Source: Schmidtea polychroa
Taxonomy: Eukaryota
DNA length: 64,000 bases
Direction: 5' to 3'
NCBI GenBank assembly: GCA_044892525.1
Contig: CM097885.1
Span: 31,684,001-31,748,000, forward strand
Positions 11,849 to 61,393 of this stretch are shown piece by piece; position 1 is the first letter of the stretch; each line of letters starts with the position of its first letter. Both the position numbers and the translations under genes were made by a program. The notes below the pieces were generated by a model. It was not told where the DNA came from. It was given only the letters and a program-made list of their open reading frames with translations, and made no database searches.

Positions 11849-12924
11849 GTATAGAATAAAATTAAAATAAATGTTTTAATTACAATAACATTTATTGAAA
11901 TTTAAATTATTTTATAAAATTAACTAATGTAATTTATTCACAAAATAATTATTTAAACAAATCTATTTTTCAATTATTACAGTAAAAAAAATCTCAAATG
12001 TTTAAAAAGAACGATTTGGTGAAATTGAGTAAATTTTTCATAAAATTCATTAGAGAAAACTTGATTTTTAGGTGTCATTGAAATAATACTGTCATGTTGT
12101 AGATAAAAAATAAAATTTTGAATATTGGTTTAACCCAATAATAATAGATCACTGACAAATGCACAGATCTTTTAAATGTTAATGTAGAATGAAATTTTTT
12201 ATTAAATTATTTAAAATAAAATATTCGCAATTCATTTGTATTTTGTTTAAATTTCGATTTGAGTAATTGCCAGCATGAAATTTCAAAGAAAATAAATTTA
12301 ACTAAATCATTACTTTAAATAATCAAGAAAAATAAATTTGGAAATTTTTAAGAATACGGAAAATTTATTATTTATCACTGAATTTAAATTTAAATTGTCA
12401 TGAATAGTTATTGAAATTAAAGATAGCAATAATTAGAATATGTCTTTGACAGAACTCTTTCAATTATCCATTTATTATGCTTTTTAATGTCAGTAGCATA
12501 TAATGAGGACTCCAGGACACTTTCAAGGTCATGGAATATCAAGATCAAATATAGGTCAATTGAATCATTTATTTATTTATTTTTTTTTTTTTTAAATTAA
12601 CATTTTATTTAATTACTTCTTTTTAATTTTTTCTTTTTAATTTTTTCATTTTAATTTTATTAATTAATTATTTTATTATGTTTTATTTTAATTTATTACA
12701 TTTAATTAATTTATTAGTTTATTAATATTTTATTTTAATTACTTACGCTATTTAATTATTATTATTATTTTTTATTTATTTATTTATTTTTTTTTTTTTT
12801 AATTAATTAATTTATTTTTTATTTTTATTTAATTACTTCTATTTATTTATTTATTTATTTTATTTTTTTTATTTTTAATTTTCTTAATTAATTATTTTAT
12901 TATGTTTTTATTTTAGTATTATTT

Positions 12925-12963
<39 letters not shown>

Positions 12964-13285
12964 TTTTTTTTTTTTTTTTTAATTTTACATTTACATTATA
13001 TTCTAACAAGAGGTACATTATAACAATAATATTTCAATTTGAATAAAATATTAATTAGAAATTATTTAATTTATTATAAAATAAAACGCTGAGTTAATTT
13101 TAGATAAACCGGATATTAATTTTTCGGAAAAAATAAATAAAATAAACACAAAAATAATATTTCTTACTTGAAACTAATTATCTAAATTAATTGGACAAAT
13201 GAATAATTAAATGATAAAACACATTTTAATTAACTAAGTCAAACAATTCACAATATATATTTTATTATTCACATAAATTTAATTG

Positions 13286-16147
13286 TTAAAGTACTTGTTT
13301 CGATTTGCATTCATTTCTAGACATAGTAGTTGCAATATGCATTTGGCGAATCTTATAGTGACCGTAGGCATAACTTTCATTACAATTGTACCAATACCTT
13401 TTATCGTCCAAACATTGGAGAGCTCGTTTTTCTGTCATGAAAGTATACAACTGATGATTGACACTTCCTATTCTTTTTTGTGGGATGCTCACTGTTCCAC
13501 CATCAGTATACACTTTTTTATAGGCTTCATGTGTAAGATTAGAGTTTGTAAGTCTTATTCCTTTGGCTTTTAGAGTGTTTTTATCGCCTTGGAGTGAGTA
13601 GCACTTGGGTCGAAGAAACACCCATTCTTTATATTGATTTCCTTTATTCTCATCCTTAACTTTCCCGATTACAGAACAAATTTTATCAGAGAACAACGGA
13701 TCGGTCACTGGATAATTTGAAGTATCTAGTAGCCCATCTTCAATCATTTTTGGATATAGTTGTAAGCGTAAATCTACATTTTTACACTCTAAAAAGAAGG
13801 AATCTGTGTCACCAGCTACGATATTAATTTGACAATTGAATTTTTCTCTATAACTCTGTAGTTCTTTATATTGAAATTGGTACATGCGAAGTTTGGATAA
13901 ATCAAGTACGGTTTGTCCAATATACATTGGTCTATCTAAACACACAATTTCCTTATTGAGTATAACAGCAATGAGATCATCCGCAATCTTGATGCTACGA
14001 CGAAACATAGGATGACTACAATAAGTTATCAATCTTTTGCTTTTGCTGCATAATCTCAAATTTATACGTTTCTTCAAGTTTTCCACAGTTTTACCGTATA
14101 AACTGTTGTTCTTTAACTTATAATAATCTCGCTGAAACGAATCCGTACTAGCTGCTCTCATTTTGGTATTGTAATCAATATATCCTTTGAAAATAGCCAC
14201 TTGTTTGAATTCTACAGCACGATTAACTTTTGTGACTTTTGCGCCGTAACTCAACCACTCTGTCAAAACTCTACCATTAACTACATAGTTTTTCTTATGC
14301 TCATGAGTTAACAACAGCTTTTCAACTTTACTACCAGGTGGATAACAAAGCTCAGGAGCTATAGGTAAATCATCTAGCTTATCTTGTATACTATCAGGAA
14401 TGACGATATCAACCTCTAGAACATATCCACGATCTCCATCAAACTCATCCCCATTTGCACATCTTTCAACAATACCATTCATTTCAGTCTGATCATTTAT
14501 CCATCTAAATTCCCCAACAGGAAGTTTTTGCGACAGCGCCCATCCATATAAATTATTAACATCTAGGTATGACATTTGTGTTGATTCATCAGCTTCAACA
14601 TGATGTTTGTTGATAAATGTCATTCCACCACGAATACCAGCTTCAAATAAACGGTAAAGCTCTGGATCTTGAATAAGTTCTACCGGTTCAGGTAACTGTT
14701 TAATAGCTGATGCCCAACTTAATCCGGGTATGGAAACAAACGATAGAGCCTCAAGTCCATCTTCGTCAAATGTTTTTTCTCTGAAAGCTTCAAAAACATC
14801 GGCCAACAGAAAAACATCCAACTTGAGATATACGAGCATGTAATCTAGCAGTGTCTCACAGTTGTATTGTTGCCAGATTCGATTTGCATGTATATAATCT
14901 TCTTGACTAACTCCCTCCCAAATCGGTGGTAATTCTGTTATTGACTGTAAAACATCCATTGATGTAGCCATATCATAAGGAAAAATGGTTTTACAAGTCA
15001 TCATCTGTGATTCGAAAACATCTGAGGTCAGTGGAAGACATGGTAAATTTCTTGATAAATTTGCCAAGCTGCTATTTAAAAATTGTAAAGAATCAATGAA
15101 TCTCATTCTTCTGCCTTTCGATGTCGCTGTAAGTGTGAGAAACTTTTCTGTTGATTGAGGAATAACATTTAAATTCCAATCAGGGAATTTTCCAATTGCA
15201 TATTTTAATATATGATGAATGTCATATCCACGAAGATTATGAAATACAACAGGTAAAGACGGATTGATTCTTCTAGCCAAGTTGCAATCTTGACATGCTG
15301 CTCCGAGATATTGACCAGTAAAATGATCATGATCTCGAACAGGTATATTGATAATCTTTTTACAAAGGTAGCAATGAGTTTGATTCGTAAATTCTTCCTG
15401 CTGTTCCCAAGTGAGTTCCATCATTTCCTTTGATCCATTAATTTTATACCACGGATAAACTATGTCTGTAGCTATATCATCCAATGCTTGTATGAACTGA
15501 ATGATACAGTTTTCCCCAACAAATGTTTCATTTCGGATCGGACAACCTTGATGAAGAAGCACAAATTCAGATGCAATCGGCTCATGTTTTTGGAAGTGTT
15601 TGTCATCTAGAGGTAATATCGATTCAAAGTCCGCGTAGACAACAAACTGCTGTTTTATAGTTTTACTCCAGTCTTTAAATTCGATATATTTATTCTCTGG
15701 CATTGAGTATAGAGTCGTCCGCTCCACATTTTTCCTACAAAGACCTATATGTCTTTCAAAAGCAGGACGTTTTCGAAACCCATGAAGACATGTATGACAC
15801 CATTGTGATTGGATTCTGACTCCTTCTACTCTATCTCTGTAATTCAGCAGTCGATCGAGATTGGTTACAGCCAAAAAATGATAATTTAATTCTAAAATTT
15901 AGTTAATATTTTAATGATTAAAGGAAATATTACCTTCTTCAATCAATAAGAGATATATCTGAGATCCCGTCGAAGTACTTCTATATACCAAGTCAACGAA
16001 CGGATTCTTGAAAATATCATTAGTTTTTTGTTTAATTGGATCTTTATTATATTTGAGAACATTGATCGCTAGATTAGGATTCATTGCTTCAAATTGGCAA
16101 ATGTTAACCAACTTCATTGGAAACCAATCTGATTTCCATTTTAACTC

Positions 16148-16185
<38 letters not shown>

Positions 16186-17277
16186 GAATGATATAAATAT
16201 ATATTACCACTTAAATTATATTTCATTACTCTTTCTCTGTGGTGTTTTATGTCATCATAATGTAATACAGCCAGTATGCCATATAAAAAGCAGAATTGAT
16301 CATTATTTTGAACATTAACTAAAGCCTGACAGTTTTTCAGGTAATTTGGCGTTTTAATGTAACTTGAACCTAAGTAAATATCTTGATTTATATATATAAT
16401 AATGTAAATAAACTTACCAGATACATGTATTATGTCTGATAATTTAGTTAAAATCATAGTAACTTCTAATATTTTATGAATTCTCCACCCACTACTTTGT
16501 TGAGTGTATTTCTCCAACTTTTCTTTTAATTTTTCAATTCCATCATTAATAAATGAAGATGACATTGTAATTGCTTTATTCGACAAACACCATTTTTTAA
16601 TTTCACCATCCTCTTTGATAAACTCTGCACAAAGTCCAAATTGGATTTTTACTGTCCCCATTCGTTGAATATGATCTTCTATTTCTTTGATGAGACAATC
16701 TGGAACAACAATGTCAGGAGAATTAATTGCAGATACATCGCTTGTCAATTCAACACGAGAACCGTTTAAGTCAGACTCCCGACGTGGACACAATTGTATG
16801 TTAGAGTCTCCATTTCCGTAAAATATTGACTTTCGTTTTGTGGTGCCAGAGTTTTGTCTAACTATATTTATAATTAATATTAAACAACTTAAATAACATA
16901 ACTTGTAACATATTCTTTAATCTCCTTAGGATCGTATGATGTATTCATTTTCGATTGTACTATAAAAAATTAATAATTGTTAATAGTAGAAAGAGTATTA
17001 CTTTTAGTGATCATCCTGCTCTTCGTTTCTTCGAATCTTCTAAGATGGTGTCCGTGTTGTCGTACAAACATTAACCACCTACCTGGTGTTATAATGAGAC
17101 ATTCCGGACATATGTAACCCGATAAGGTAGAGTCATTTATCTTGAAATATGATGATGTAACTGATTTACAGTTCTCCACATCTTCATGACTTTCGGCAAT
17201 ACAAAATTTATATAAACTGCATCCGTTCACTAAAAAATAATCATTAATATTAGATAGAGAATAAAAATTTATTCACT
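13286..17277 (-). CDS. polB: Mirror copy of the spliced pPolB gene. Predicted exons 17277, 17229-17002, 16959-16903, 16861-16418, 16369-16208, 16146-15934, 15891-13286
   Basis: ORF translations (862, 99, 229, 86 aa) are identical to those of the right arm, with mirrored splice sites. Confidence 0.9.
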
Positions 17278-17327
17278 TATATAAGTTAAATTAAAAGTTT
17301 AAATGACAAACATTTGAAAAGTTACTG

Positions 17328-17437
17328 CTTATATATTACACATGATTAAATTCTGACCAATCAAAATCAAGGAAGGGGTAGGAAAAATAAATATATTCTG
17401 ACCAATCAAAATCAAGGAAGGGGTAGGAAAAATAAAT
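17328..17437 (-). promoter_or_regulatory. Mirror copy of the putative polB promoter
   Basis: Two copies of TTCTGACCAATCAAAATCAAGGAAGGGGTAGGAAAAATAAAT, plus CTTATATA. Confidence 0.6.
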
Positions 17438-18549
17438 GCATTACATTGCAGTATTTTAAAACTTAAATTTTAAAACACATTTTGACGCTAAAGTTGACTT
17501 ATTTAACATTTTCATAATAATTTAATAAAAATAATGTGTTGAACTCACAAAGTAATATCATTTTTTTTTTTTCATCAAATTGCAAAACAGTAATAACGTT
17601 TTCATAAAATTGTAACAAAGTAATAACATATTTCAGATAAATTTTCAACAGTTGTAAAATATTTATCAAATTGTAACTAAAATAATAAAAATATTGCAAC
17701 AAAGTAATAAAATAATGATGTTAATTGGGACAAATCAATACATTATTTCGAAGACGGACAACAAATTAAAAAAGAATATTGTAATAAATTGTGAAGTCTT
17801 TCAGTAAATTACAACAAAGTAATAACATATTTCGGAAATATTTCACCAGATGTAAAATATTTAAGCAAATTGTTATAAGATTATAAAAATATTGCAACAA
17901 AGTAATAAAATAATACAACATTTTAAACTCTAGATCAATCCATTTTATAGAAAATTAAATTTTATCTCTATAATATATGAATAAATATACAAGGAAATTA
18001 CGTTAACGTATAATAAAACATGTGTGTATTACACACAAAACAAGATACATAATTTCTAATCAATCCATTTTATAGAAAATTAAATTTTATCTATATATTA
18101 TATGAATAAAATCCTAAGAAAATTACGTTAACCGCGCGAAAAATACAAATTTATCGTAAAAACATGTGTGTATTACACACAACATACGAGACATAATTTT
18201 TAATCAAGCTATTTTATAGAAAATTAAATTTTATCTATATATTAAATGAATAAAAATCCAAGAAAATAACGTTAAGCGCGCGAAAAAATACAAATTTATT
18301 GTAAAAACATGTGTGCATTACACACAAAGCACCAAACTGAAATTGTAATTGCGCCGTGTTGTAGAGAATTAAATTCTGCCTATACATTGTTACACTTAAA
18401 TCTCGATCAGACCTGTGAAAAGAGACATAAAAGAGAAAGAACAGTAGAGTAGTATGATTGGTCCCCGCCAGACCAGGTCCCCTCCAGACCACATATACCC
18501 CCTCCCCCCCCCCCTCCCCCCCGGGAAAAATTTTTTTTTTTTTTAAAAT

Positions 18550-20950
18550 AAAAGGTCAAGGTCATTTTTTAATTTAATTTTTTGTTTTAATTAAGTGATC
18601 ATTTAATTTTTCAAGGTCATATTTTAAAATTTAAATGTACAGAGTTCCCGCCAACAAATATTATTAAACGATACCTCATCTTAAAGCTCGGTCTAAGACC
18701 TTTCGATTGATCCATAGAAGGTGTCATCATCATTAATATTAACAAAGTTATTAACATTTAACCAAAAATCATTTTCAAGGTCATATAATTATTAGTGGTC
18801 CAGCGGTGACCTGGTTTTCGTTTGCCCCAAAGTTATCGTTCCCATTATCCGAATTTATTAATCGATAGCTTATTTTGAAGCGTAGTCTAAGACCTTTCAA
18901 TTGAGCCATAGAAGGTATCATCATCATTAACATCGGCAAAGTTATTAAAGTTTTACCGAGACCATTTTTCAAGGTCATTTATTTTTCAAAATATTATTTT
19001 CAAGGTCAAGGTCAAGGTCATTTATTTTTTCAAGGTCATTTATTTTTTCAAGGTCATTTATTTTTTCAAGGTCATTTATTTTTTCAAGGTCATTTATTTT
19101 TTCAAGGTCATATTTTAAAATTTAAATGTACAGAGTTCCCGACAACGATAATTATTCAACGATAGCTCATTTTAAAGCCCAATGCAAGACCTTTCGATTG
19201 ATTCATAGAAGGTATCATCATCATTATTATTGACAAAGTTATTATCAATTAACCAAAAATCATTTTCAAGGTCATATAATTATTAGTGGTCCAGCGGTGA
19301 CCTGGTTTTCGTTTGCCCCAAAGTTATCGTTCCCATTATCCGAATTTATTAATCGATAGCTTAATTTGAAGCTTAGTGCAAGATCTATCTACTGATGTAT
19401 AAATATTATCATCATCATTATTATTGGCAAAATTATTAACGTTTTCCCGAGACCATTTTCAAGGTCATTTATTTTTCAAAATATTATTTCCAAGGTCATT
19501 TATTTTTTCAAGGTCATTTATTATTTCCAAGGTCATTTATTTTTTCAAGGTCATTTTTTTTTTTCAAGGTCATTTTTTAATTTAATTTTTTGTTTTAATT
19601 AAGTGATCATTTAATTTTTCAAGGTCATATTTTAAAATTTAAATGTACAGAGTTCCCGCCAACAAATATTATTAAACGATACCTCATTTTAAAGCTCGGT
19701 CTAAGACCTTTCGATTGATCCATAGAAGGTATCATCATCATTAATATTAACAAAGTTATTAACATTTAACCAAAAATCATTTTCAAGGTCATATAATTAT
19801 TAGTGGTCCAGCGGTGACCTGGTTTTCGTTTGCCCCAAAGTTATCGTTCCCATTATCCGAATTTATTATTTGATAGCTTATTTTGAAGCTTAGTGCAAGA
19901 TCTATCTACTGATGTATAAATATTATCATCATCATTATTATTGGCAAAATTATTAACGTTTTCCCGAGACCATTTTCAAGGTCATTTATTTTTCAAAATA
20001 TTATTATTTCCAAGGTCATTTATTTTTTCAAGGTCGCGTGACTCATCAAGGTCATTCCCAAGGTCATTTTTTTTTTTCAAGGTCATTTTTTAATTTAATT
20101 TTTTGTTTTAATTAAGTGATCATTTAATTTTTCAAGGTCATATTTTAAAATTTAAATGTACAGAGTTCCCGCCAACAAATATTATTAAACGATACCTCAT
20201 TTTAAAGCTCGGTCTAAGACCTTTCGATTGATCCATAGAAGGTATCATCATCATTAATATTAACAAAGTTATTAACATTTAACCAAAAATCATTTTCAAG
20301 GTCATATAATTATTAGTGGTCCAGCGGTGACCTGGTTTTCGTTTGCCCCAAAGTTATCGTTCCCATTATCCGAATTTATTATTTGATAGCTTATTTTGAA
20401 GCTTAGTGCAAGATCTATCTACTGATGTATAAATATTATCATCATCATTATTATTGGCAAAATTATTAACGTTTTCCCGAGACCATTTTCAAGGTCATTT
20501 ATTTTTCAAAATATTATTATTTCCAAGGTCATTTATTTTTTCAAGGTCGCGTGACTCATCAAGGTCATTCCCAAGGTCATTTTTTTTTTCAAGGTCATTT
20601 TTTAATTTAATTTTTTGTTTTAATTAAGTGATCATTTAATTTTTCAAGGTCATATTTTAAAATTTAAATGTACAGAGTTCCCGCCAACAAATATTATTAA
20701 ACGATACCTCATTTTAAAGCTCGGTCTAAGACCTTTCGATTGATCCATGGAAGGTATCATCATCATTAATATTAACAAAGTTATTAACATTTAACCAAAA
20801 ATCATTTTCAAGGTCATATAATTATTAGTGGTCCAGCGGTGACCTGGTTTTCGTTTGCCCCAAAGTTATCGTTCCCATTATCCGAATTTATTATTGGATA
20901 GCTTATTTTGAAGCTTAGTGCAAGATCTATCTACTGATGTATAAATATTA
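18550..20950 (+). repeat. Central non-palindromic spacer: about five tandem ~490-517-bp units rich in CAAGGTCA
   Basis: Marker GTCCAGCGGTGACCTGG recurs at ~18797, 19289, 19806, 20319 and 20831. Roughly 35 CAAGGTCA motifs by eye, all on the + strand, some in 18-bp sub-repeats (TTTATTTTTTCAAGGTCA). Confidence 0.92.
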
Positions 20951-21154
20951 TTATTAACATTATTTTACACACGGGGGGGGGAGAGGGTATATGTGGCCTG
21001 GCGGTGACCTGGTCTGGATGGCCCCAATCATACTACTCTACTGTTCTTTCTCTTTTATGTCTCTTTTCACAGGTCTGATCGAGATTTAAGTGTAACAATG
21101 TATAGGCAGAATTTAATTCTCTACAACACGGCGCAATTACAATTTCAGTTTGGT

Positions 21155-21550
21155 GCTTTGTGTGTAATGCACACATGTTTTTACAATAAATTTGTATTTT
21201 TTCGCGCGCTTAACGTTATTTTCTTGGATTTTTATTCATTTAATATATAGATAAAATTTAATTTTCTATAAAATAGCTTGATTAAAAATTATGTCTCGTA
21301 TGTTGTGTGTAATACACACATGTTTTTACGATAAATTTGTATTTTTCGCGCGGTTAACGTAATTTTCTTAGGATTTTATTCATATAATATATAGATAAAA
21401 TTTAATTTTCTATAAAATGGATTGATTAGAAATTATGTATCTTGTTTTGTGTGTAATACACACATGTTTTATTATACGTTAACGTAATTTCCTTGTATAT
21501 TTATTCATATATTATAGAGATAAAATTTAATTTTCTATAAAATGGATTGA
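21155..21550. repeat. Three degenerate ~120-bp tandem repeats in the inner arm (mirror copy ~17935-18330)
   Basis: TGTGTGTAATRCACACATGTTTT, TTAACGT and ATAAAATTTAATTTTCTATAAAAT each recur three times. Confidence 0.8.
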
Positions 21551-22047
21551 TCTAGAGTTTAAAATGTTGTATTATTTTATTACTTTGTTGCAATATTTTT
21601 ATAATCTTATAACAATTTGCTTAAATATTTTACATCTGGTGAAATATTTCCGAAATATGTTATTACTTTGTTGTAATTTACTGAAAGACTTCACAATTTA
21701 TTACAATATTCTTTTTTAATTTGTTGTCCGTCTTCGAAATAATGTATTGATTTGTCCCAATTAACATCATTATTTTATTACTTTGTTGCAATATTTTTAT
21801 TATTTTAGTTACAATTTGATAAATATTTTACAACTGTTGAAAATTTATCTGAAATATGTTATTACTTTGTTACAATTTTATGAAAACGTTATTACTGTTT
21901 TGCAATTTGATGAAAAAAAAAAAATGATATTACTTTGTGAGTTCAACACATTATTTTTATTAAATTATTATGAAAATGTTAAATAAGTCAACTTTAGCGT
22001 CAAAATGTGTTTTAAAATTTAAGTTTTAAAATACTGCAATGTAATGC

Positions 22048-22157
22048 ATTTATTTTTCCTACCCCTTCCTTGATTTTGATTGGTCAGAATATATTTATTT
22101 TTCCTACCCCTTCCTTGATTTTGATTGGTCAGAATTTAATCATGTGTAATATATAAG
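22048..22157 (+). promoter_or_regulatory. Putative Pol II promoter of polB: two direct repeats (45-bp period) each with an inverted CCAAT box, followed by a TATA-like box
   Basis: ATTTATTTTTCCTACCCCTTCCTTGATTTTGATTGGTCAGAAT at 22048 and 22093. TATATAAG at 22150-22157, ~50 nt before the first splice donor. Confidence 0.6.
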
Positions 22158-22207
22158 CAGTAACTTTTCAAATGTTTGTCATTTAAACTTTTAATTTAAC
22201 TTATATA

Positions 22208-23299
22208 AGTGAATAAATTTTTATTCTCTATCTAATATTAATGATTATTTTTTAGTGAACGGATGCAGTTTATATAAATTTTGTATTGCCGAAAGTCATG
22301 AAGATGTGGAGAACTGTAAATCAGTTACATCATCATATTTCAAGATAAATGACTCTACCTTATCGGGTTACATATGTCCGGAATGTCTCATTATAACACC
22401 AGGTAGGTGGTTAATGTTTGTACGACAACACGGACACCATCTTAGAAGATTCGAAGAAACGAAGAGCAGGATGATCACTAAAAGTAATACTCTTTCTACT
22501 ATTAACAATTATTAATTTTTTATAGTACAATCGAAAATGAATACATCATACGATCCTAAGGAGATTAAAGAATATGTTACAAGTTATGTTATTTAAGTTG
22601 TTTAATATTAATTATAAATATAGTTAGACAAAACTCTGGCACCACAAAACGAAAGTCAATATTTTACGGAAATGGAGACTCTAACATACAATTGTGTCCA
22701 CGTCGGGAGTCTGACTTAAACGGTTCTCGTGTTGAATTGACAAGCGATGTATCTGCAATTAATTCTCCTGACATTGTTGTTCCAGATTGTCTCATCAAAG
22801 AAATAGAAGATCATATTCAACGAATGGGGACAGTAAAAATCCAATTTGGACTTTGTGCAGAGTTTATCAAAGAGGATGGTGAAATTAAAAAATGGTGTTT
22901 GTCGAATAAAGCAATTACAATGTCATCTTCATTTATTAATGATGGAATTGAAAAATTAAAAGAAAAGTTGGAGAAATACACTCAACAAAGTAGTGGGTGG
23001 AGAATTCATAAAATATTAGAAGTTACTATGATTTTAACTAAATTATCAGACATAATACATGTATCTGGTAAGTTTATTTACATTATTATATATATAAATC
23101 AAGATATTTACTTAGGTTCAAGTTACATTAAAACGCCAAATTACCTGAAAAACTGTCAGGCTTTAGTTAATGTTCAAAATAATGATCAATTCTGCTTTTT
23201 ATATGGCATACTGGCTGTATTACATTATGATGACATAAAACACCACAGAGAAAGAGTAATGAAATATAATTTAAGTGGTAATATATATTTATATCATTC

Positions 23300-23337
<38 letters not shown>

Positions 23338-26199
23338 GAGTTAAAATGGAAATCAGATTGGTTTCCAATGAAGTTGGTTAACATTTGCCAATTTGAAGCA
23401 ATGAATCCTAATCTAGCGATCAATGTTCTCAAATATAATAAAGATCCAATTAAACAAAAAACTAATGATATTTTCAAGAATCCGTTCGTTGACTTGGTAT
23501 ATAGAAGTACTTCGACGGGATCTCAGATATATCTCTTATTGATTGAAGAAGGTAATATTTCCTTTAATCATTAAAATATTAACTAAATTTTAGAATTAAA
23601 TTATCATTTTTTGGCTGTAACCAATCTCGATCGACTGCTGAATTACAGAGATAGAGTAGAAGGAGTCAGAATCCAATCACAATGGTGTCATACATGTCTT
23701 CATGGGTTTCGAAAACGTCCTGCTTTTGAAAGACATATAGGTCTTTGTAGGAAAAATGTGGAGCGGACGACTCTATACTCAATGCCAGAGAATAAATATA
23801 TCGAATTTAAAGACTGGAGTAAAACTATAAAACAGCAGTTTGTTGTCTACGCGGACTTTGAATCGATATTACCTCTAGATGACAAACACTTCCAAAAACA
23901 TGAGCCGATTGCATCTGAATTTGTGCTTCTTCATCAAGGTTGTCCGATCCGAAATGAAACATTTGTTGGGGAAAACTGTATCATTCAGTTCATACAAGCA
24001 TTGGATGATATAGCTACAGACATAGTTTATCCGTGGTATAAAATTAATGGATCAAAGGAAATGATGGAACTCACTTGGGAACAGCAGGAAGAATTTACGA
24101 ATCAAACTCATTGCTACCTTTGTAAAAAGATTATCAATATACCTGTTCGAGATCATGATCATTTTACTGGTCAATATCTCGGAGCAGCATGTCAAGATTG
24201 CAACTTGGCTAGAAGAATCAATCCGTCTTTACCTGTTGTATTTCATAATCTTCGTGGATATGACATTCATCATATATTAAAATATGCAATTGGAAAATTC
24301 CCTGATTGGAATTTAAATGTTATTCCTCAATCAACAGAAAAGTTTCTCACACTTACAGCGACATCGAAAGGCAGAAGAATGAGATTCATTGATTCTTTAC
24401 AATTTTTAAATAGCAGCTTGGCAAATTTATCAAGAAATTTACCATGTCTTCCACTGACCTCAGATGTTTTCGAATCACAGATGATGACTTGTAAAACCAT
24501 TTTTCCTTATGATATGGCTACATCAATGGATGTTTTACAGTCAATAACAGAATTACCACCGATTTGGGAGGGAGTTAGTCAAGAAGATTATATACATGCA
24601 AATCGAATCTGGCAACAATACAACTGTGAGACACTGCTAGATTACATGCTCGTATATCTCAAGTTGGATGTTTTTCTGTTGGCCGATGTTTTTGAAGCTT
24701 TCAGAGAAAAAACATTTGACGAAGATGGACTTGAGGCTCTATCGTTTGTTTCCATACCCGGATTAAGTTGGGCATCAGCTATTAAACAGTTACCTGAACC
24801 GGTAGAACTTATTCAAGATCCAGAGCTTTACCGTTTATTTGAAGCTGGTATTCGTGGTGGAATGACATTTATCAACAAACATCATGTTGAAGCTGATGAA
24901 TCAACACAAATGTCATACCTAGATGTTAATAATTTATATGGATGGGCGCTGTCGCAAAAACTTCCTGTTGGGGAATTTAGATGGATAAATGATCAGACTG
25001 AAATGAATGGTATTGTTGAAAGATGTGCAAATGGGGATGAGTTTGATGGAGATCGTGGATATGTTCTAGAGGTTGATATCGTCATTCCTGATAGTATACA
25101 AGATAAGCTAGATGATTTACCTATAGCTCCTGAGCTTTGTTATCCACCTGGTAGTAAAGTTGAAAAGCTGTTGTTAACTCATGAGCATAAGAAAAACTAT
25201 GTAGTTAATGGTAGAGTTTTGACAGAGTGGTTGAGTTACGGCGCAAAAGTCACAAAAGTTAATCGTGCTGTAGAATTCAAACAAGTGGCTATTTTCAAAG
25301 GATATATTGATTACAATACCAAAATGAGAGCAGCTAGTACGGATTCGTTTCAGCGAGATTATTATAAGTTAAAGAACAACAGTTTATACGGTAAAACTGT
25401 GGAAAACTTGAAGAAACGTATAAATTTGAGATTATGCAGCAAAAGCAAAAGATTGATAACTTATTGTAGTCATCCTATGTTTCGTCGTAGCATCAAGATT
25501 GCGGATGATCTCATTGCTGTTATACTCAATAAGGAAATTGTGTGTTTAGATAGACCAATGTATATTGGACAAACCGTACTTGATTTATCCAAACTTCGCA
25601 TGTACCAATTTCAATATAAAGAACTACAGAGTTATAGAGAAAAATTCAATTGTCAAATTAATATCGTAGCTGGTGACACAGATTCCTTCTTTTTAGAGTG
25701 TAAAAATGTAGATTTACGCTTACAACTATATCCAAAAATGATTGAAGATGGGCTACTAGATACTTCAAATTATCCAGTGACCGATCCGTTGTTCTCTGAT
25801 AAAATTTGTTCTGTAATCGGGAAAGTTAAGGATGAGAATAAAGGAAATCAATATAAAGAATGGGTGTTTCTTCGACCCAAGTGCTACTCACTCCAAGGCG
25901 ATAAAAACACTCTAAAAGCCAAAGGAATAAGACTTACAAACTCTAATCTTACACATGAAGCCTATAAAAAAGTGTATACTGATGGTGGAACAGTGAGCAT
26001 CCCACAAAAAAGAATAGGAAGTGTCAATCATCAGTTGTATACTTTCATGACAGAAAAACGAGCTCTCCAATGTTTGGACGATAAAAGGTATTGGTACAAT
26101 TGTAATGAAAGTTATGCCTACGGTCACTATAAGATTCGCCAAATGCATATTGCAACTACTATGTCTAGAAATGAATGCAAATCGAAACAAGTACTTTAA
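22208..26199 (+). CDS. polB: Protein-primed family B DNA polymerase polyprotein (terminal-protein/OTU-like N-terminus, Zn finger, 3'-5' exonuclease with endonuclease VII insert, polymerase). Predicted exons 22208, 22256-22483, 22526-22582, 22624-23067, 23116-23277, 23339-23551, 23594-26199; 1236 aa
   Basis: ExoI YADFES, ExoII HNLRGYD, ExoIII YLKLDV, motif A YLDVNNLYG, motif B KLKNNSLYGK, motif C GDTDS, plus LRPKCYS, KAKGI and DDKRY. Six GT-AG introns of 41-61 nt join the four ORF-track pieces into one 3711-nt frame. The 5' exon model is manual. Confidence 0.9.
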
Positions 26200-26521
26200 C
26201 AATTAAATTTATGTGAATAATAAAATATATATTGTGAATTGTTTGACTTAGTTAATTAAAATGTGTTTTATCATTTAATTATTCATTTGTCCAATTAATT
26301 TAGATAATTAGTTTCAAGTAAGAAATATTATTTTTGTGTTTATTTTATTTATTTTTTCCGAAAAATTAATATCCGGTTTATCTAAAATTAACTCAGCGTT
26401 TTATTTTATAATAAATTAAATAATTTCTAATTAATATTTTATTCAAATTGAAATATTATTGTTATAATGTACCTCTTGTTAGAATATAATGTAAATGTAA
26501 AATTAAAAAAAAAAAAAAAAA

Positions 26522-26560
<39 letters not shown>

Positions 26561-29500
26561 AAATAATACTAAAATAAAAACATAATAAAATAATTAATTA
26601 AGAAAATTAAAAATAAAAAAAATAAAATAAATAAATAAATAAATAGAAGTAATTAAATAAAAATAAAAAATAAATTAATTAATTAAAAAAAAAAAAATAA
26701 ATAAATAAATAAAAAATAATAATAATAATTAAATAGCGTAAGTAATTAAAATAAAATATTAATAAACTAATAAATTAATTAAATGTAATAAATTAAAATA
26801 AAACATAATAAAATAATTAATTAATAAAATTAAAATGAAAAAATTAAAAAGAAAAAATTAAAAAGAAGTAATTAAATAAAATGTTAATTTAAAAAAAAAA
26901 AAATAAATAAATAAATGATTCAATTGACCTATATTTGATCTTGATATTCCATGACCTTGAAAGTGTCCTGGAGTCCTCATTATATGCTACTAATGTCTAT
27001 GATGAATTTCTGTAAATTTATTGATTTTCTGTAATGAAATTTTATTTGTTTGAATTTGTTTTATAATTAAAATGTTTTACATGTGTACAAAAAATTTGCA
27101 AATATTGTATTTTGTGATTATTATTCGTATTTATAAAGAATTAGTAATTGAAGCTTTATTATGTATGAAACAAAAGTTTTATTAGAACTATAAATATTTT
27201 GAAGGAAATTTATAAGTGCTTTTCATTTTAATTATAACAAATTGATCATTAAAATCTTTTATCTTTTACACAATAATCTATTATCTTTTGCAATTTTTAT
27301 TATCATCACTTATTTATGGAAATTATAACAATATTTTGTTTTTTATTTAACATAATGTGATTTTGATAAAGGCTATACCGAAAATTCATGTTAAATATGA
27401 CGTAAATATATAAAGAAATAATAAGAAATTAAATTAAAACTAATAAATAATTATAAGAACTTTTTTCAGTTTTCACCTCTGATTTCTTTTCAATTGACAT
27501 TGTATTAAAAAGATTTGACTTAAATGCTAAAGAAATCGATATCTTTACCAATTCATAGACAAATATTTTTAATAAATTCTATAAATAATAATTTTATATA
27601 TTAAAAAGGTTTTGTGTACTACTGAAAATGACGATAGAATATTCGAGTTTTCTTTTTCTATCCTAATGTATATTTTGTTGTATTTTCAAAGAGCTCTACA
27701 AAATCAAGAGAGGTTGAAAAATGGAAAAATTTTAAATATTGTGTTTGATGAATTTTTCCATTTTCAAAAGTCAGTTAAGCTTCTTAATTCATATTAATTG
27801 CTTTACTTGAAGCAACACTTGATTGTCACATAAACTGACCAGACTTTTCAAGAGTTCTTCAAGTGCAACACAGTTAAAAACCGTTGACAAACCTTTATCA
27901 AAATGCCTTCCACTAAATGATTTCAGTTTTTTACTTTTTGCAATTTCCTTCAGATAACTACAGACCTTCCTGAAACTAGCTAATTTACAACTTTATATAG
28001 TAATTTATTAGTTTTTTATGAGTGATTTTCCCATTGAATTCTGTAATAAATAAAGAATTTATTTTGTCTATGAAGTAGAAGACCTTTTGAAGTTCAATTA
28101 AGTTTAGTTATACGAAGATATAAATTTTTATTTATCTTTATATACTCCATGTTATGATTCGTGTCAAATATTGTCTTCAGGTCAAGACTTATTATTTTTC
28201 CAAGAATTTATAACATAATCTTTGTAACACTACTAAATTGGAACCTTATTCTAGGTAGAATAAGTCATGCATAATTATTATATTTCAACTCCATTATCTC
28301 TAGTATGACTTATAACACTAATATTCAGCTCTAGAAAGTCAAGTACTTGTCAAACAATTCTTTTACTTTAAGGATTAAGGATAAAGTAAAGAGTCTTCCG
28401 TTTTAAATTGAGAAAACCTCATAAGATTGAAATTTAAGAGTCATTTACAAGAAATAGCACCTGCAATAGATTAACTCTCAGAAACCCAGATCCTCAAAAG
28501 TTCCGTGAAACAACTGAGAGACACTTAGAGGTTATAAAGGTTATAAATCATTTAAGAATATATTTGAAATTTTAATCCCGAATTTTGTTTAGCACGTAAA
28601 AAGCTAAATATTCAAAATAAAATAACAATGCCAAGTTTTCACCGAGATTTTGCACAGTAACATTTGAAAAATTTAATTTACATGCAAAAAAATAATAAAT
28701 ATTATGGGTATAAGCAAAACCTTTTTATCATTTTGTTAATTGTAGATTTCATTTTTTTGTATTTAAAACTTAAAACATTTTTATTTTATATATTTTAAAA
28801 ATTAAAAGTCAGAGAGGTCGGAAACCACTGATCTACAGGGTATTTCCAAATTGTTAATAGTCGGCTGATGCTCCAGTAGAACTTGATGTGTTATAAATAT
28901 ACATAAGCTTTTTTTTGTTATATGCATTAATTTTATGGCGTCAATTATAATTTTAACAAATTTATAAAAAATATATATTGTTTGGATATAATGTTAAAAT
29001 CAATCTATGCAACATGTCAAGAAAATGTTATTGTAAGATTGAACCAAAATTATTACCTGACTTCAGATTGTTGAAATATAATCCCTTGTGTGTTAACGTG
29101 TTTGCTAGCGCTAAAGCTTTGATAATAAGGTTGCAATGTTTGAAGCATGAATGTTTAATTACTAACATAAGAAATTGAATCATTCTATTTGTCGATATTT
29201 GTTTGATTGATGATTGTTTAAAACAAAATGTTCTTTCATTTTATATCAATTTAAAAAAATATATAATTCGCCAAGCATTACCAAATTTATGGAGGAAATC
29301 GAGAATTATGGTAAATTCTATTTAATCATTTTCAATGTTAATATTTCATTTATAGGTGCTTATGTCGCTATTATTTTGGAAAGATTGAAGTGTCATTATC
29401 CACAAATGGCTGAAATTCTCAATGGTAAACCATCAACAATGATTCCCGATCTGGCTTACAAGGAGACAATAATTTGGATTTTGGATATTATCCAGCAATT

Positions 29501-54800: not shown

Positions 54801-54998
54801 ATTGGTTGCATGATTTGTCGGAGAAAATGGAGACACCATATTCAATGAATTTCAATGCTGGGGGACCGTCGAATATTACAATTTATGTGAGTTCGCTTTA
54901 CTTTACTTGCAGTAGCCTGACAAGTGTTGGATTTGGAAATGTCTCCCCAAATACGAATACAGAGAAAATATTTTCTATTTGCACAATGCTCATTGGAG
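54801..54998 (+). CDS. KCNH/Elk channel exon (pore helix, selectivity filter, start of S6); gene presumably continues beyond the window
   Basis: ttgcag|AT is phase 1. Reads WLHDL...[38 protein letters not shown] with the SVGFGN KCNH filter. Donor G|gtaaat. Confidence 0.95.
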
Positions 54999-55924
54999 GT
55001 AAATGTGGTTTAAAATAAGAATTTTTTGTTTTATTTTAAAAAGATAGAAATAAATGGTATTAGTATAAATATTATTATTACCTAATTAAAATTTCATTCA
55101 AATAATAATACATAATTTACATATGTCATCAACTATAAGCAGAAAATGTGTATGTTGTTCGATGTCTGCACACATACTTGTTAATTGCCTCCAATCAGAA
55201 CTCGAGAACAAATGCATAATTTATCCAGTTCTATTCATATCAACCAAAATGATAGATAAACATAGAATTTTCAATTTATTTACGCTGATTTTTAAAACAA
55301 TCACAAAAAATGTCACGTGAGTCTGATGTATCATAATCTGTTTATTGCAAATTCAATTTAAAAACGGTATATTATTATGTGCCTCTATATGTACGTTTCG
55401 AGTATTGTCAATGACGGTAATGTTTGATCGAGATATTTTTATCCTGTTCTATACATGTAATATGTCAGATTGTTTTATTGAATTATTAGAAAATATAAAA
55501 GATGAAAAGAATCATAAACTTTTAAGTTTTGATTTAGTTGTCTTTTATGACATTTTGAGTGATTGCAAACACTATTCTTTTAAGGGTTTGTAAGGATTTT
55601 TAAGATACATCATAAGAATATAATTTATGATTGTATAAACCCACATATAGACCGATACCATGAATAAATAGTTGCAAATTTTATTAAAATCGATTTTATA
55701 TTAATAATTTTTAATATCACTAATATAATATTTTTAAATAATTTTAATAATAATTTCAATAATAATTCCAAGTTTTCTTTAATTCTTTAACATTCGTTTT
55801 AAAAGTTTTCTAGTTATCGAGTATTAAATTATATCTCATTCAAACAAAAGAGTAGTATGTAGTAAGGACTCCAGCGCACTTTCAAGGTCATGGAATATCA
55901 AGATCAAATATAGACCAATCGAAT

Positions 55925-57050
55925 CATTTATTTTTTAAATTAACATTTTATTTAATTACTTCTTTTTAATTTTTCTTTTTAATTTTATTAATTAATTATT
56001 TTATGATGTTATATTTTAATTACTTACTTTATTTAATTTTTAATTTATTACATTTAATTAATTTATTAGTTTATTAATATTTTATTTTAATTACTTACGC
56101 TTTATTATTATTTATTTTTATTTTTATTTATTTTATTTTATTTTATTTTTTTTTTAATTAATTAATTTATTTTTTAATTTAAATTTTATTTAATTACTTC
56201 TATTTTTTTTTTCTTTTTAATTTTATTAATTAATTATTTTATGATGTTATATTGTAATTACTTACTTTAGTTAATTTTTAATTTATTACATTTAATTAAT
56301 TTATTAGTTTATTAATATTTTATTTTAATTACTTACGCTTTATTATTAATTATTTTTATTTATTATTTTTTTATTTTTTTTATTTTTTTTATTTTTTTTA
56401 ATTAATTTATTTTTTTTTTAATTTAAATTTTATTTAATTACTTCTATTTTTTTTTCTTTTTAATTTTATTAATTAATTATTTTATGATGTTATATTGTAA
56501 TTACTTACTTTAGTTAATTTTTAATTTATTACATTTAATTAATTTATTAGTTTATTAATATTTTATTTTAATTACTTACGCTTTATTATTATTTATTTTT
56601 ATTTTTATTTATTTATTTATTTTTTTTTAATTAATTAATTTATTTTTTAATTTAAATTTTATTTAATTACTTTTATTTATTTTATTTATTTATTTTTTTT
56701 TCTTTTTAATTTTATTAATTAATTATTTTATGATGTTATATTTTAATTACTTACTTTAGTTAATTTTTAATTTATTACATTTAATTAATTTATTAGTTTA
56801 TTAATATTTTATTTTAAAAACTTACGCTTTATTATTATTTATTTTTATTTATTTATTTATTTATTTTTTTTTTTAATTAATTTATTTATTTTTTAATTTA
56901 AATTTTATTTAATTACTTCTATTTATTTATTTTTTTTATTTATTTATTTTTTTTTTCTTTAATTTTCTTAATTAATTATTTTATTATGTTTTTATTTTAG
57001 TATTATTTTATTTATTTATTATTATTATTATTATTATTTTTTTTTTTTAA
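55925..57050. repeat. Subterminal extremely AT-rich ~240-bp tandem array of copy 2 (mirror ~60230-61300)
   Basis: Marker ACTTACGCTTT at ~56092, 56331, 56573 and 56820. AAAGCGTAAG occurs four times in the right arm. Copy 1 has one such marker per arm. Confidence 0.8.
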
Positions 57051-57385
57051 TTTTACATTTACATTATATTCTAACAAGAGGTAAATTATAACAATAATAT
57101 TTCAATTTGAATAAAATTTTAATTAGTAATTATTCAATTTGAATAAAATTTTAATTAGAAATTATTTAATTTATTATAAAATAAAACGCTGAGTTAATTT
57201 TGGATAAACCGGATATTAATTTTTCGGAAAAAATAAATAAAATAAACACAAAAATAATATTTCTTACTTGAAACTAATTATCTAAATTAATTGGACAAAT
57301 GAATAATTAAATGATAAAACACATTTTAATTAAGTAAGTCAAATAATTCACAATATATATTTTATTATTCACATAAATTTAATTG

Positions 57386-59470
57386 TTAAAGTGCTTGTTT
57401 CGATTTGCATTCATTTGTAGACGGAGCAGTTGCAATATGCATTTGACGAATCTTATAGTGACCGTAGGCATAGCTTTCATTAGAATTGAACCAATATCTT
57501 TTATCATCCAAACATTGGAGAGCTCGTTTTTCTGTAATGAAAGTATACAACTGACGATTAACACTTTCTATTCTCTTTTGTTGGATGCTCACTGTTCTAC
57601 CATCAGTATACACTTTTTTATAAGCTTCATGGGTGATATTAGAATTTGTAAGACTTATTCCTTTGGCTTTTAGAGTGTTTTTATCGCTTTGGAGTGAGTA
57701 GCATTTGGGTCGAAGAAACACCCATTCTTTATATTGATTTCCTTTATTCTCATCCTTAACTTTCCCGATTACCGAACAGATTTTATCAGAGAACAACGGA
57801 TCGGTCACTGGATAATTTGAAGTATCTAGGAGCCCATCTTCAATCATTTTTGGATATAGTTGTAAGCGTAAATCAACATTTTTACACTCTAAAAAGAAGG
57901 AATCTGTGTCACCGGCTACGATATTAATTTGACAATTGAATTCTTCTCTATAACTCTGTAGTTCTTTATATTGAAACTGGTACATGCGAAGTTTGGATAA
58001 ATCAAGTACGGTTTGTCCAATATACATTGGTCTATCTAAACACACAATTTCCTTATTGAGTATAACAGCAATGAGATCATCCGCAATCTTAATGCTACGA
58101 CGAAACATAGGATGACTACAATAAGTTATCAATCTTTTGCTTTTGTTGCATAATCTCAAATTTATACGTTTCTTCAAGTTTTCCACAGTTTTACCGTATA
58201 AACTGTTGTTCTTTAACTTATAATAATCTCGCTGAAACGAATCCGTACTAGCTGCTCTCATTTTGGTATTGTAATCAATATAGCCTTTGAAAATAGCTAC
58301 TTGCTTGAATTCTACAGCACGATTAACTTTTGTGACTTTTGCGCCGTAACTCAACCACTCTGTCAAAATTCTACCATTAACTACATAGTTTTTCTTAGGC
58401 TCATGAGTTAACAACAGCTTTTCAACTTTACTACCAGGTGGATAACAAAGCTCAGGAGCTATAGGTAAATCATCTAGCTTATCTTGTATACTATCAGGAA
58501 TGACGATGTCAACCTCTAGAACATATCCACGATCTCCATCAAACTCATCCCCATTTGTACATCTTTCAACAATACCATTCATTTCAGTCTGATCATTTAT
58601 CCATCTAAATTCACCAACAGGAAGATTTTGCGACAGCGCCCATCCATATAAATTATTAACATCTAGGTATGACATTTGTGTTGATTCATCAGCTTCAACA
58701 TGATGTTTGTTGATAAATGTCATTCCACCACGAATAACAGCTTCGAATAAACGGTAAAGCTCTGGATCTTGAATAAGTTCTACCGGTTCAGGTAACTGTT
58801 TAATAGCTGATGCCCAACTTAATCCGGGTATGGAAACAAACGATAAAGCCTCAAGTCCATCTTCGTCAAATGTTTTTTTCTCTGAAAGCTTCAAAAACAT
58901 CGGCCAACAGAAAAACATCCAGCTTGAGATATACTAGCATGTAATCTAGCAGTGTCTCACAGTTGTATTGTTGCCAGATTCGATTTGCATGTATATAATC
59001 TTCTTCACTAACTCCCTCCCAAATCAGTGGTAATTCTGTTATTGACTGTAAAACATCCATTGATGTAGCCATATCATAAGGAAAAATGGTTTTACAAGTC
59101 ATCATCTGTGATTCGAAAACATCTGAGGTCAGTGGAAGACATGGTAAATTTTTTGATAAATTTGCCAAGCTGCTATTTAAAAATTGTAAAGAATCAATGA
59201 ATCTAATTCTTCTGCCTTTCGATGTCGCTGTAAGTGTGAGAAACTTTTCTGTTGATTGAGGAATAACATTTAAATTCCAATCGGGGAATTTTCCAATTGC
59301 ATATTTTAATATATGATGAATGTCATATCCACGAAGATTGTGAAATACAACAGGTAAAGACGGATTGATTCTTCTAGCCAAGTTGCAATCTTGACATGCT
59401 GCTCCGAGATATTGACCAGTAAAATGATCATGATCTCGAACAGGTATATTGATAATCTTTTTACAAAGGT
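57386..59470 (-). pseudogene. polB: 5'-truncated, frameshifted pPolB (left arm of copy 2)
   Basis: 171-aa and 510-aa ORFs are near-identical to copy 1. One extra T in the T-run at 58873-58879 shifts the frame. The gene is truncated at the start of the EndoVII Zn motif. Confidence 0.92.
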
Positions 59471-59891
59471 GACTGATCCATTGTTCTCAGATAAAATTTG
59501 TTCGGTAATCGGGAAAGTTAAGGATGAGAATAAAGGAAATCAATATAAAGAATGGGTGTTTCTTCGACCCAAATGCTACTCACTCCAAGGCGATAAAAAC
59601 ACTCTAAAAGCCAAAGGAATAAGTCTTACAAATTCTAATATCACCCATGAAGCTTATAAAAAAGTGTATACTGATGGTAGAACAGTGAGCATCCAACAAA
59701 AGAGAATAGAAAGTGTTAATCGTCAGTTGTATACTTTCATTACAGAAAAACGAGCTCTCCAATGTTTGGATGATAAAAGATATTGGTTCAATTCTAATGA
59801 AAGCTATGCCTACGGTCACTATAAGATTCGTCAAATGCATATTGCAACTGCTCCGTCTACAAATGAATGCAAATCGAAACAAGCACTTTAA
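59469..59891 (+). pseudogene. polB: C-terminal pPolB fragment (right arm of copy 2)
   Basis: VTDPLFSDKICSVIGKVKDE...KRALQCLDDKRY...KQAL, beginning abruptly at the deletion junction. Confidence 0.92.
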
Positions 59892-61393
59892 CAATTAAAT
59901 TTATGTGAATAATAAAATATATATTGTGAATTATTTGACTTACTTAATTAAAATGTGTTTTATCATTTAATTATTCATTTGTCCAATTAATTTAGATAAT
60001 TAGTTTCAAGTAAGAAATATTATTTTTGTGTTTATTTTATTTATTTTTTCCGAAAAATTAATATCCGGTTTATCCAAAATTAACTCAGCGTTTTATTTTA
60101 TAATAAATTAAATAATTTCTAATTAAAATTTTATTCAAATTGAATAATTACTAATTAAAATTTTATTCAAATTGAAATATTATTGTTATAATTTACCTCT
60201 TGTTAGAATATAATGTAAATGTAAAATTAAAAAAAAAAAATAATAATAATAATAATAATAAATAAATAAAATAATACTAAAATAAAAACATAATAAAATA
60301 ATTAATTAAGAAAATTAAAGAAAAAAAAAATAAATAAATAAAAAAAATAAATAAATAGAAGTAATTAAATAAAATTTAAATTAAAAAATAAATAAATTAA
60401 TTAAAAAAAAAAATAAATAAATAAATAAATAAAAATAAATAATAATAAAGCGTAAGTTTTTAAAATAAAATATTAATAAACTAATAAATTAATTAAATGT
60501 AATAAATTAAAAATTAACTAAAGTAAGTAATTAAAATATAACATCATAAAATAATTAATTAATAAAATTAAAAAGAAAAAAAAAATAAATAAATAAAATA
60601 AATAAAAGTAATTAAATAAAATTTAAATTAAAAAATAAATTAATTAATTAAAAAAAAATAAATAAATAAATAAATAAAAATAAATAATAATAAAGCGTAA
60701 GTAATTAAAATAAAATATTAATAAACTAATAAATTAATTAAATGTAATAAATTAAAAATTAACTAAAGTAAGTAATTACAATATAACATCATAAAATAAT
60801 TAATTAATAAAATTAAAAAGAAAAAAAAATAGAAGTAATTAAATAAAATTTAAATTAAAAAAAAAATTAATTAATTAAAAAAAATAAAAAAATAATAAAT
60901 AAAAATAAAAATAAATAATAATAAAGCGTAAGTAATTAAAATAAAATATTAATAAACTAATAAATTAATTAAATCTAATAAATTAAAAATTAACTAAAGT
61001 AAGTAATTACAATATAACATCATAAAATAATTAATTAATAAAATTTAAATTAAAAAATAAATTAATTAAATAAAAAAAAATAAAATAAAATAAAATAAAT
61101 AAAAATAAAAATAAATAATAATAAAGCGTAAGTAATTAAAATAAAATATTAATAAACTAATAAATTAATTAAATGTAATAAATTAAAAATTAAATAAAGT
61201 AAGTAATTAAAATATAACATCATAAAATAATTAATTAATAAAATTAAAAAGAAAAATTAAAAAGAAGTAATTAAATAAAATGTTAATTTAAAAAATAAAT
61301 GATTCGATTGGTCTATATTTGATTTTGATATTCCATGACCTTGAAAGTGCGCTGGAGTCCTTACTACATACTACTCAAAAGGAATTATATATA

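Follow-up and report, generated by a model that had tools for sequence, protein, structure and literature searches.

Two palindromic Polinton/Maverick derivatives whose arms match within each element, pointing to templating of one arm from the other

Two palindromic elements, here called copy 1 and copy 2, lie in AT-rich, eukaryotic DNA within the window, by which we mean the whole 64-kb stretch that was analysed. Their extents and target-site duplications are as follows.

12486-12491 and 26992-26997: copy 1 target duplication, AATGTC, perfect on both sides
12492..26991, no strand assigned: copy 1, symmetric palindromic derivative of 14,500 bp with ends AGTAGC...GCTACT
55845..55850, plus strand: left 6-bp target-site duplication of copy 2, CAAAAG
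55851..61375, no strand assigned: copy 2, Polinton/Maverick derivative, an asymmetric palindrome of 5,525 bp with ends (AGT)2...(ACT)2
61376..61381, plus strand: right 6-bp target-site duplication of copy 2, CAAAAG

Both palindromes end exactly at the element termini, between unrelated flanks, and the two target-site duplications are perfect but different from each other. Several hallmarks of Polintons/Mavericks were found. Both copies are bordered by a 6-bp target-site duplication, and a protein-primed family B polymerase (pPolB; PF03175, E 1e-29) is present in every arm of both copies, oriented towards the terminus. The end motif is exactly (AGT)2//(ACT)2 in copy 2 and a one-base variant of it at both ends of copy 1; this motif is the commonest at Maverick ends according to the available part of PMC8097293. 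A search for relatives of the polymerase yielded 177 homologues among 1,637 candidates, the best of them 69% identical. Exonuclease- and polymerase-type motifs were located in the copy-1 pPolB ORF, to which we presumptively assign the corresponding exonuclease and polymerase roles.

A Pfam scan of the distinct ORFs of at least 60 amino acids in both elements, using one arm of each mirrored pair, gave polymerase-related matches only; no integrase, packaging ATPase, protease or capsid was found among these ORFs, although genes split by many small introns could escape such a scan. Autonomous Polintons have terminal repeats of ~46-1,500 bp that lie outside the genes, whereas the arms here are 6.0 kb and 1.9 kb long and contain pPolB. 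As in copy-back or snap-back genomes, one end is duplicated in reverse complement around a loop. Judged by these sequence features, both copies are classed as helper-dependent, non-autonomous Polinton/Maverick derivatives rather than autonomous elements.

In copy 1, 6.0-kb arms flank a 2.6-kb centre.

12492..18512, minus strand: copy 1 left arm, with the pPolB main ORF at 13286-15874
18443..21042, no strand assigned: copy 1 centre, a ~513-bp tandem array inside a second pair of Polinton-end-like motifs (AGTAGAGTAGT...)
20973..26991, plus strand: copy 1 right arm, with the pPolB main ORF at 23611-26199 (PF03175, E 1e-29)
22255..23610, plus strand, mirrored in the left arm: 5' region of the copy-1 pPolB, with homology to N-termini of relatives of 1,100-1,400 amino acids

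The right arm differs from the left by no substitution over 21024-26991 (5,968 bp) and by two 1-base homopolymer indels. All eight arm substitutions lie within 51 bp of the inner arm end, in imperfect inner repeats (18462-18501 / 20984-21023), and the perfect match between arms starts 19 bp inside the ends of the central nested element. That central element (18443-21042) resembles a nested, gene-less element of Polinton type, with AGTAG ends accompanied by G/C runs. The sequences flanking it are inverted copies, not direct duplicates, as would follow if an arm had been copied outward from its end. The ~513-bp tandem units are rich in CAAGGTCA, which occurs many times in the central array (18540-20900) and also ~30 bp inside each outer end (12492-12540, 55851-55900); we take this motif to resemble a nuclear-receptor half-site.

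Five candidate GT..AG mini-introns of 42-61 bp, one of which contains a (TA)15 run, are located in or just before the pPolB 5' part (22209-23593 and the left-arm mirror), and splicing of this part is predicted from the sequence; the candidate exons align with N-termini of full-length relatives. Upstream of pPolB, the copy-1 arms carry 45-bp tandem repeats (17350-17437 / 22048-22135) and 145-bp tandem repeats (17890-18432 / 21053-21595). The 45-bp unit includes a CCAAT box and may possibly mark a promoter region.

Copy 2 consists of a 1.9-kb stem and a 1.66-kb loop, such that the left arm extends from codon ~169 to the terminus and the right arm begins at codon 723.

55851..57808, minus strand: paired part of the copy 2 left arm, comprising the terminus, four ~240-bp AT-rich units, the 3' flank and pPolB codons 723-862
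57809..59470, minus strand: unpaired loop of copy 2, 1.66 kb, pPolB codons ~169-722, 1.6% different from copy 1
59469..59470, no strand assigned: copy 2 strand-switch junction, a 2-bp microhomology (GT)
59469..59498, plus strand: loop-proximal 30 bp of copy 2 with four silent arm mismatches, read as an uncorrected remnant
59469..61375, plus strand: copy 2 right arm, comprising pPolB codons 723-862, the 3' flank, the four AT-rich units mirrored and the terminus
59624..59884, plus strand, mirror 57393-57653: divergent C-terminal block of copy 2, codons 774-861, with 13 shared amino-acid differences

The left-arm reading frame of copy 2 is disrupted in a homopolymer run near 58875, leaving its pPolB both truncated and broken. 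No homology longer than 2 bp and no strong hairpin was found at the copy-2 break points, where the best chance matches are 9 bp and predicted folds range from -3.9 to -5.1 kcal/mol. Each copy-2 arm holds four of the ~240-bp AT-rich subterminal units (55926-57000, 60237-61300), and copy 1 has one. The change in this array is common to both copy-2 arms, and the order of units matches between them (L1=R1, L4=R4).

To compare all four arms, an ungapped alignment of 682 bp was used (copy 1, 13027-13708 and 25777-26458; copy 2, 57127-57808 and 59469-60150). Among the 37 variable columns, 32 separate the arms by element (26 coding and 6 in the 3' flank) and none by side; these 32 sites are not independent events and come from two elements. 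The remaining columns are private to the right (three) or left (two) arm of copy 2. Over the same 682 bp, the copy-1 arms show no differences, the copy-2 arms show 5, and arms of different elements show 34-35. The same division by element is seen in the terminal hexamer variant, in the terminal 85 bp and in the number and order of AT-rich units. These data confirm the observation that the arms are alike within an element and that the other element differs.

The initial annotation had described 13 amino-acid differences from copy 1 common to both copy-2 arms within the last ~95 codons. The count proved exact and the C-terminal location holds, but the span is slightly shorter, namely the final 89 codons (774-861 of the 862-aa ORF). 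Its statements that the copy-1 arms have identical translations, and that the copy-2 mismatches cluster next to the junction, were likewise borne out. The clustered mismatches lie 6, 12, 21 and 30 bp from the junction, and the QSD/QGD difference (codon 763) is a change in the left arm only. Having four of the five mismatches within the first 30 of 682 bp has a chance of 1.8e-5, or 6.6e-4 if any 25-bp span is allowed. The distinctive letters belong to the right arm at 59474, 59480 and 59489 and to the left arm at 59498/57779. All four are silent (chance 0.0024), which argues for a coding relative as their source and not random damage; repair-associated random mutagenesis is disfavoured on the same ground. 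Outside this cluster, the copy-2 arms differ by six scattered substitutions, a ~40-bp deletion in one AT-rich unit and homopolymer indels; arm substitutions in copy 2 number 11 in all.

Arms that match are to be expected wherever an element has terminal inverted repeats, and are ordinary on their own. More informative are letters that are rare in the family as a whole. Contigs of four public runs (of 19 listed) were placed on 57812-60120 and covered 40 of 94 variant rows; run X10, with coverage in 17 of 30 bins and nothing from the right arm, was left out. The family is very abundant, with 9,709 contigs in X16 and 2,857 in X1. At 59679, 59710, 59722 and 60075 the copy-2 letter makes up less than 0.3% of the summed contig depth in both of these runs, and the first three of these positions fall in the divergent C-terminal block. 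Two further letters found in both copy-2 arms lie below 4% of depth (all six being among the 19 both-arm variant rows listed). Because letters this rare (<0.3%) sit in both copy-2 arms, one arm was templated from the other. On this point, the 32 by-element and 0 by-side sites, together with the rare letters, uphold the claim of templating in the initial annotation. One copying event per element accounts for everything observed in these two copies, with which repeated panhandle correction, gene conversion and fresh fold-back, as named in that annotation, are all compatible.

The residual depths in X1 are 49 and 51 for both-arm rare letters and 0, 46, 117 and 423 for left-only rare letters, so that the both-arm letters are not at double depth, contig depth being no measure of copy number. 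Each of X1 and X16 is without one or two of the copy-2 letters, and neither run is therefore shown to carry copy 2. At the protein level, H807R, which is one of the rare letters, changes a column where all 59 of 59 aligned homologues carry H, and G803E changes a column with G in 39 of 60 (both among the best 60 of the 120 listed). Copy 1 offers a parallel case: both of its arms encode H at codon 526, a position held by P in 20 of the 20 closest homologues, as well as in copy 2 and an X3 contig. Such rare letters arose once, in a copy that was probably free of selection. The homologues, at no more than 69% identity, polarise few of the 13 amino-acid changes; the majority of columns vary.

Contig joints that skip sequence or change strand within pPolB were seen in X16 and X1 (15 of the 91 rows listed), and these suggest many other deleted or rearranged family copies. 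Beyond these runs, metagenome contigs provided two weakly related loci among 57 candidate stretches (43% over 30 aa), and viral contigs one distantly related locus among 10 (27%); these loci were left out of the comparisons.

Copy 2 also appears to combine two haplotypes. Set against copy 1, the copy-2 left arm has mismatches at 27 of 1661 bases upstream of the junction-equivalent point, compared with 28 of 423 downstream of it (p 3e-7), and a divergence scan singled out a block at 25932-26168 that beats 1000 of 1000 permutations. Replacement changes number 8 in codons 367-773 versus 14 in codons 774-862. Synonymous divergence rises from ~0.04-0.048 (codons 170-773) to 0.17 (codons 774-862; p 0.0017), so relaxed selection alone is insufficient as the cause of the C-terminal excess; dN/dS values of 0.18 versus 0.39 do not differ significantly (p 0.18). 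With X3 contigs as the third sequence, the copy-2 branch carries 15/1541 changes upstream versus 11/226 downstream (p 1.6e-4), and the copy-1 branch carries 9/1541 and 0/226; contigs 24 and 25 of X3 may be separate molecules, and 3 of the 12 contig-24 differences were deduced from a count. The excess on the copy-2 branch downstream implies a copy-2 left arm with a copy-1-like loop and a stem of another haplotype.

The proposal that the density of C-terminal replacements reflects mosaicism is thus supported by the parallel rise in synonymous divergence and by the placement of the excess on the copy-2 branch. It needs tempering, however, as part of the excess belongs to a weakly conserved tail and to standing polymorphism. 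Conservation among the best 60 of the 120 listed homologues is 0.52 and 0.41 in the C-terminal tail versus 0.55-0.73 upstream. Six sites within the block have the copy-2 letter as the commoner one in the family, with the copy-1 letter at 6-30%; two C-terminal haplotypes segregate in the family.

Where the haplotype changes is located less sharply. Synonymous differences between the right arm and copy 1 are even from the junction on (5/33.8, or 0.148, then 10/58.5, or 0.171), and those between the loop and copy 1 are 16/365.5, a split at the junction with p 0.0016. The best change point is codon 774, with a support range of 730-780 (535-777 from synonymous sites alone and 747-780 from replacement sites alone). 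The codons predicted by a switch close to the junction, 730-734, lie at the edge of this range, 40 codons before the best point, and are excluded by replacement sites taken alone. For this reason, a mosaic parent plus a short patch from a third template stays a live option. No significant change point emerged from a free scan restricted to synonymous sites (148 of 1000 permutations). In the 3' flank, copy 1 and the copy-2 left arm differ at only 4 of 253 positions, below the level expected of a second parent.

We consider it fairly probable that copying tied to element replication, before integration at the present site, made the second arm from the first. In this scheme, a single strand would fold back, or the polymerase would switch to the strand just made, near the centre of the element. 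Synthesis or mismatch correction in the long stem would then make the arms identical out to the terminus, and whatever one arm held, rare damaging mutations included, would spread to both. Parental differences would persist only in the 20-50 bp next to the loop. An integrase supplied in trans would insert the product with its 6-bp duplication, after which the arms would diverge slowly, copy 2 having acquired its six scattered arm substitutions in that time. For copy 1, the fold may have formed at the imperfect ends of the central nested element, and the distribution of its mismatches has the shape expected from fold-back priming at an imperfect repeat. Copy 2 could represent an asymmetric copy-back with a 2-bp switch point that drew on two family members, one supplying the copy-1-like loop and the other the stem. 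The most economical version would have the right arm come whole from the second parent and overwrite the left arm to within ~30-35 bp of the junction. Plain racket copying would retain mismatches, and so a step of correction or re-synthesis presumably took place. The timing at replication, the enzymes and the direction of copying are what we infer from these patterns.

The strongest competing account concerns copy 2 alone. Here, copy 2 would be a host-repair deletion of a full palindrome that resembled copy 1 and was already mosaic, its silent junction letters being a short patch from a family copy or a brief polymerase excursion. The 2-bp microhomology at the junction, the large pool of donors (9,709 and 2,857 contigs), a best change point that falls at codon 774 and not at the junction, and the two C-terminal haplotypes that already segregate (copy-1 letter at 6-30%, six sites) all fit such a history. 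Nevertheless, an independent mosaic boundary would have to fall by chance within ~150 bp of the junction-equivalent point, and we regard this account as somewhat unlikely. It still requires templating of the parental arms, and would thus alter the history of copy 2 and leave the main conclusion unaffected. Less likely again is gene conversion in place, in which host recombination keeps the arms of an inserted palindrome alike, least effectively beside the spacer. Under such a process, arms would match within an element and share rare letters, and leftover mismatches would sit at the inner border, all with no re-mobilisation of a damaged precursor. However, the six scattered substitutions, the ~40-bp deletion and the indels in copy 2 indicate that conversion is not fast there, and the formation of the palindromes is left unexplained. 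The difference between copy 1, with 0 substitutions in 5,968 bp, and copy 2 fits age since a one-off reset, although slow conversion is also compatible with it.

The two accounts that dispense with arm-to-arm copying in the animal fare worse. An artefact of assembly or polishing, with arms collapsed or cross-corrected or with fold-back chimeric reads, might be suspected given the identity of the copy-1 arms over 5,968 bp, which extends to a (TA)15 run present in each, and given that none of the listed contigs (31 of 12,739 pieces) spans the copy-2 junction. Yet the palindromes stop exactly at termini flanked by perfect 6-bp duplications and unrelated DNA, copy 2 retains 11 arm substitutions with four in a silent-only cluster, and family-wide mis-mapping would draw the arms to common letters, not to letters below 0.3%. 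We consider an artefact very improbable as the source of the pattern, and it could inflate the arm identity of copy 1. Finally, the arms of each copy might have been acquired independently from very close relatives of one subfamily, with no templating at all, as many by-element sites are common family polymorphisms. This is scarcely credible in light of the four letters below 0.3% in both deep runs that are present in both arms, of AT-unit order and terminal variants that match as well, and of a right arm that differs from the left exactly at the stem end.

Arm-to-arm copying has precedents outside these elements. In adenovirus, panhandle replication and repair of the inverted terminal repeats (ITRs) represent arm-to-arm correction in protein-primed replication, with ITRs that are short and non-coding. 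The palindromes of mammalian Y chromosomes undergo arm-to-arm conversion in place, and are host loci that do not move. Hydra linear mitochondrial DNA, in the accessible part of PMC2518934, shows substitutions between lineages in all terminal-repeat copies of one genome; there the repeats contain part of a gene and a replication-linked cause was proposed, but they are ~200-bp repeats of an organelle chromosome, whereas the arms here are kilobases long and belong to an integrating element. Foldback priming in yeast (PMC10622511, abridged text) shares a short imperfect inverted repeat that seeds a long perfect inverted duplication, which fits the copy-1 centre. In the yeast case, the mismatches of an 11-bp seed are mostly corrected, whereas copy 1 retains 8, and the products are chromosome rearrangements rather than mobile elements.

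Copy-back and snap-back defective viral genomes (PMC13506859) and AAV snapback genomes (PMC10924063), as outlined in the portions available, share with our elements an end duplicated as its reverse complement and dependence on a helper. They also share their shapes, a stem plus loop as in copy 2 and a near-full palindrome as in copy 1. Those described in the same portions are RNA viruses and single-stranded parvoviruses in transient particles, whereas the elements here are double-stranded and integrated with target duplications, and differ further in having a protein-primed polymerase and a two-parent signature. Going by the architecture and the target duplications, our elements may have a copy-back origin through a template switch by the element polymerase, with replication or packaging by a helper.

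Compared with Polintons/Mavericks as covered in the accessible parts of PMC8097293 and PMC10748475, our elements share the 6-bp duplication, the (AGT)2//(ACT)2-type ends, pPolB and matched terminal inverted repeats, and copy 1 falls within the 12.7-24.6 kb size range. Vertebrate repeats in the same sources are 46-1,447 bp long, whereas the arms here measure 6.0 kb and 1.9 kb, and intact vertebrate Polintons are intronless, whereas candidate introns occur here in pPolB. A further difference is that pPolB lies inside both arms here, and that no integrase, ATPase, protease or capsid ORF was found. A literature search over titles and abstract openings, with few subscription papers and with Repbase and supplements outside its scope, returned no palindromic Polinton derivative with polymerase in both arms, a weak negative.

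The standing model of Polinton replication, in the part of PMC4196379 available, involves a racket-like single-stranded intermediate and rests on bioinformatics. A bolder reading, which we hold possible but short of probable, is that the two elements are fossil DNA copy-back Polinton genomes, in which the polymerase switched between co-replicating family members and its own product, and the hairpin was corrected to near the loop and then integrated. If so, the uncorrected zone next to the loop, present in both elements, would preserve a readable trace of the single-stranded racket intermediate, and the length, direction and age of the tracts would be measurable from the sequence of palindromic copies alone. 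With coding arms that are kilobases long, informative sites are numerous enough for templating to be observed directly, its end point to be mapped and recombination among family members to be recognised. Arm identity would date the last reset and not the lineage, and a single step is enough to double a damaged polymerase allele. What we consider useful is that rare alleles in both arms, an uncorrected loop zone in each element and a two-haplotype structure occur together, so that the Polinton replication model can be tested on sister copies.

The surroundings of the elements hold several other features. A host exon for an ion-channel pore is located at 54763-54999 of the window (Pfam Ion_trans_2, E 5e-11), and is presumably similar to EAG/ERG potassium channels. 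It lies 850 bp left of copy 2, and copy 2 may therefore sit in an intron. A degenerate element resembling an LTR retrotransposon occupies 61391-64000, beginning 10 bp right of the copy-2 duplication, and has a 65-bp direct repeat at 61391 and 63936 (94%). Fragments like a zinc knuckle, a reverse transcriptase (RT) and an integrase were recognised in it by eye, the scanned ORFs being without Pfam support. Between the two palindromes, an ORF at 29738-30346 encodes a retrotransposon RNase H-like domain (PF17919, E 2e-27).
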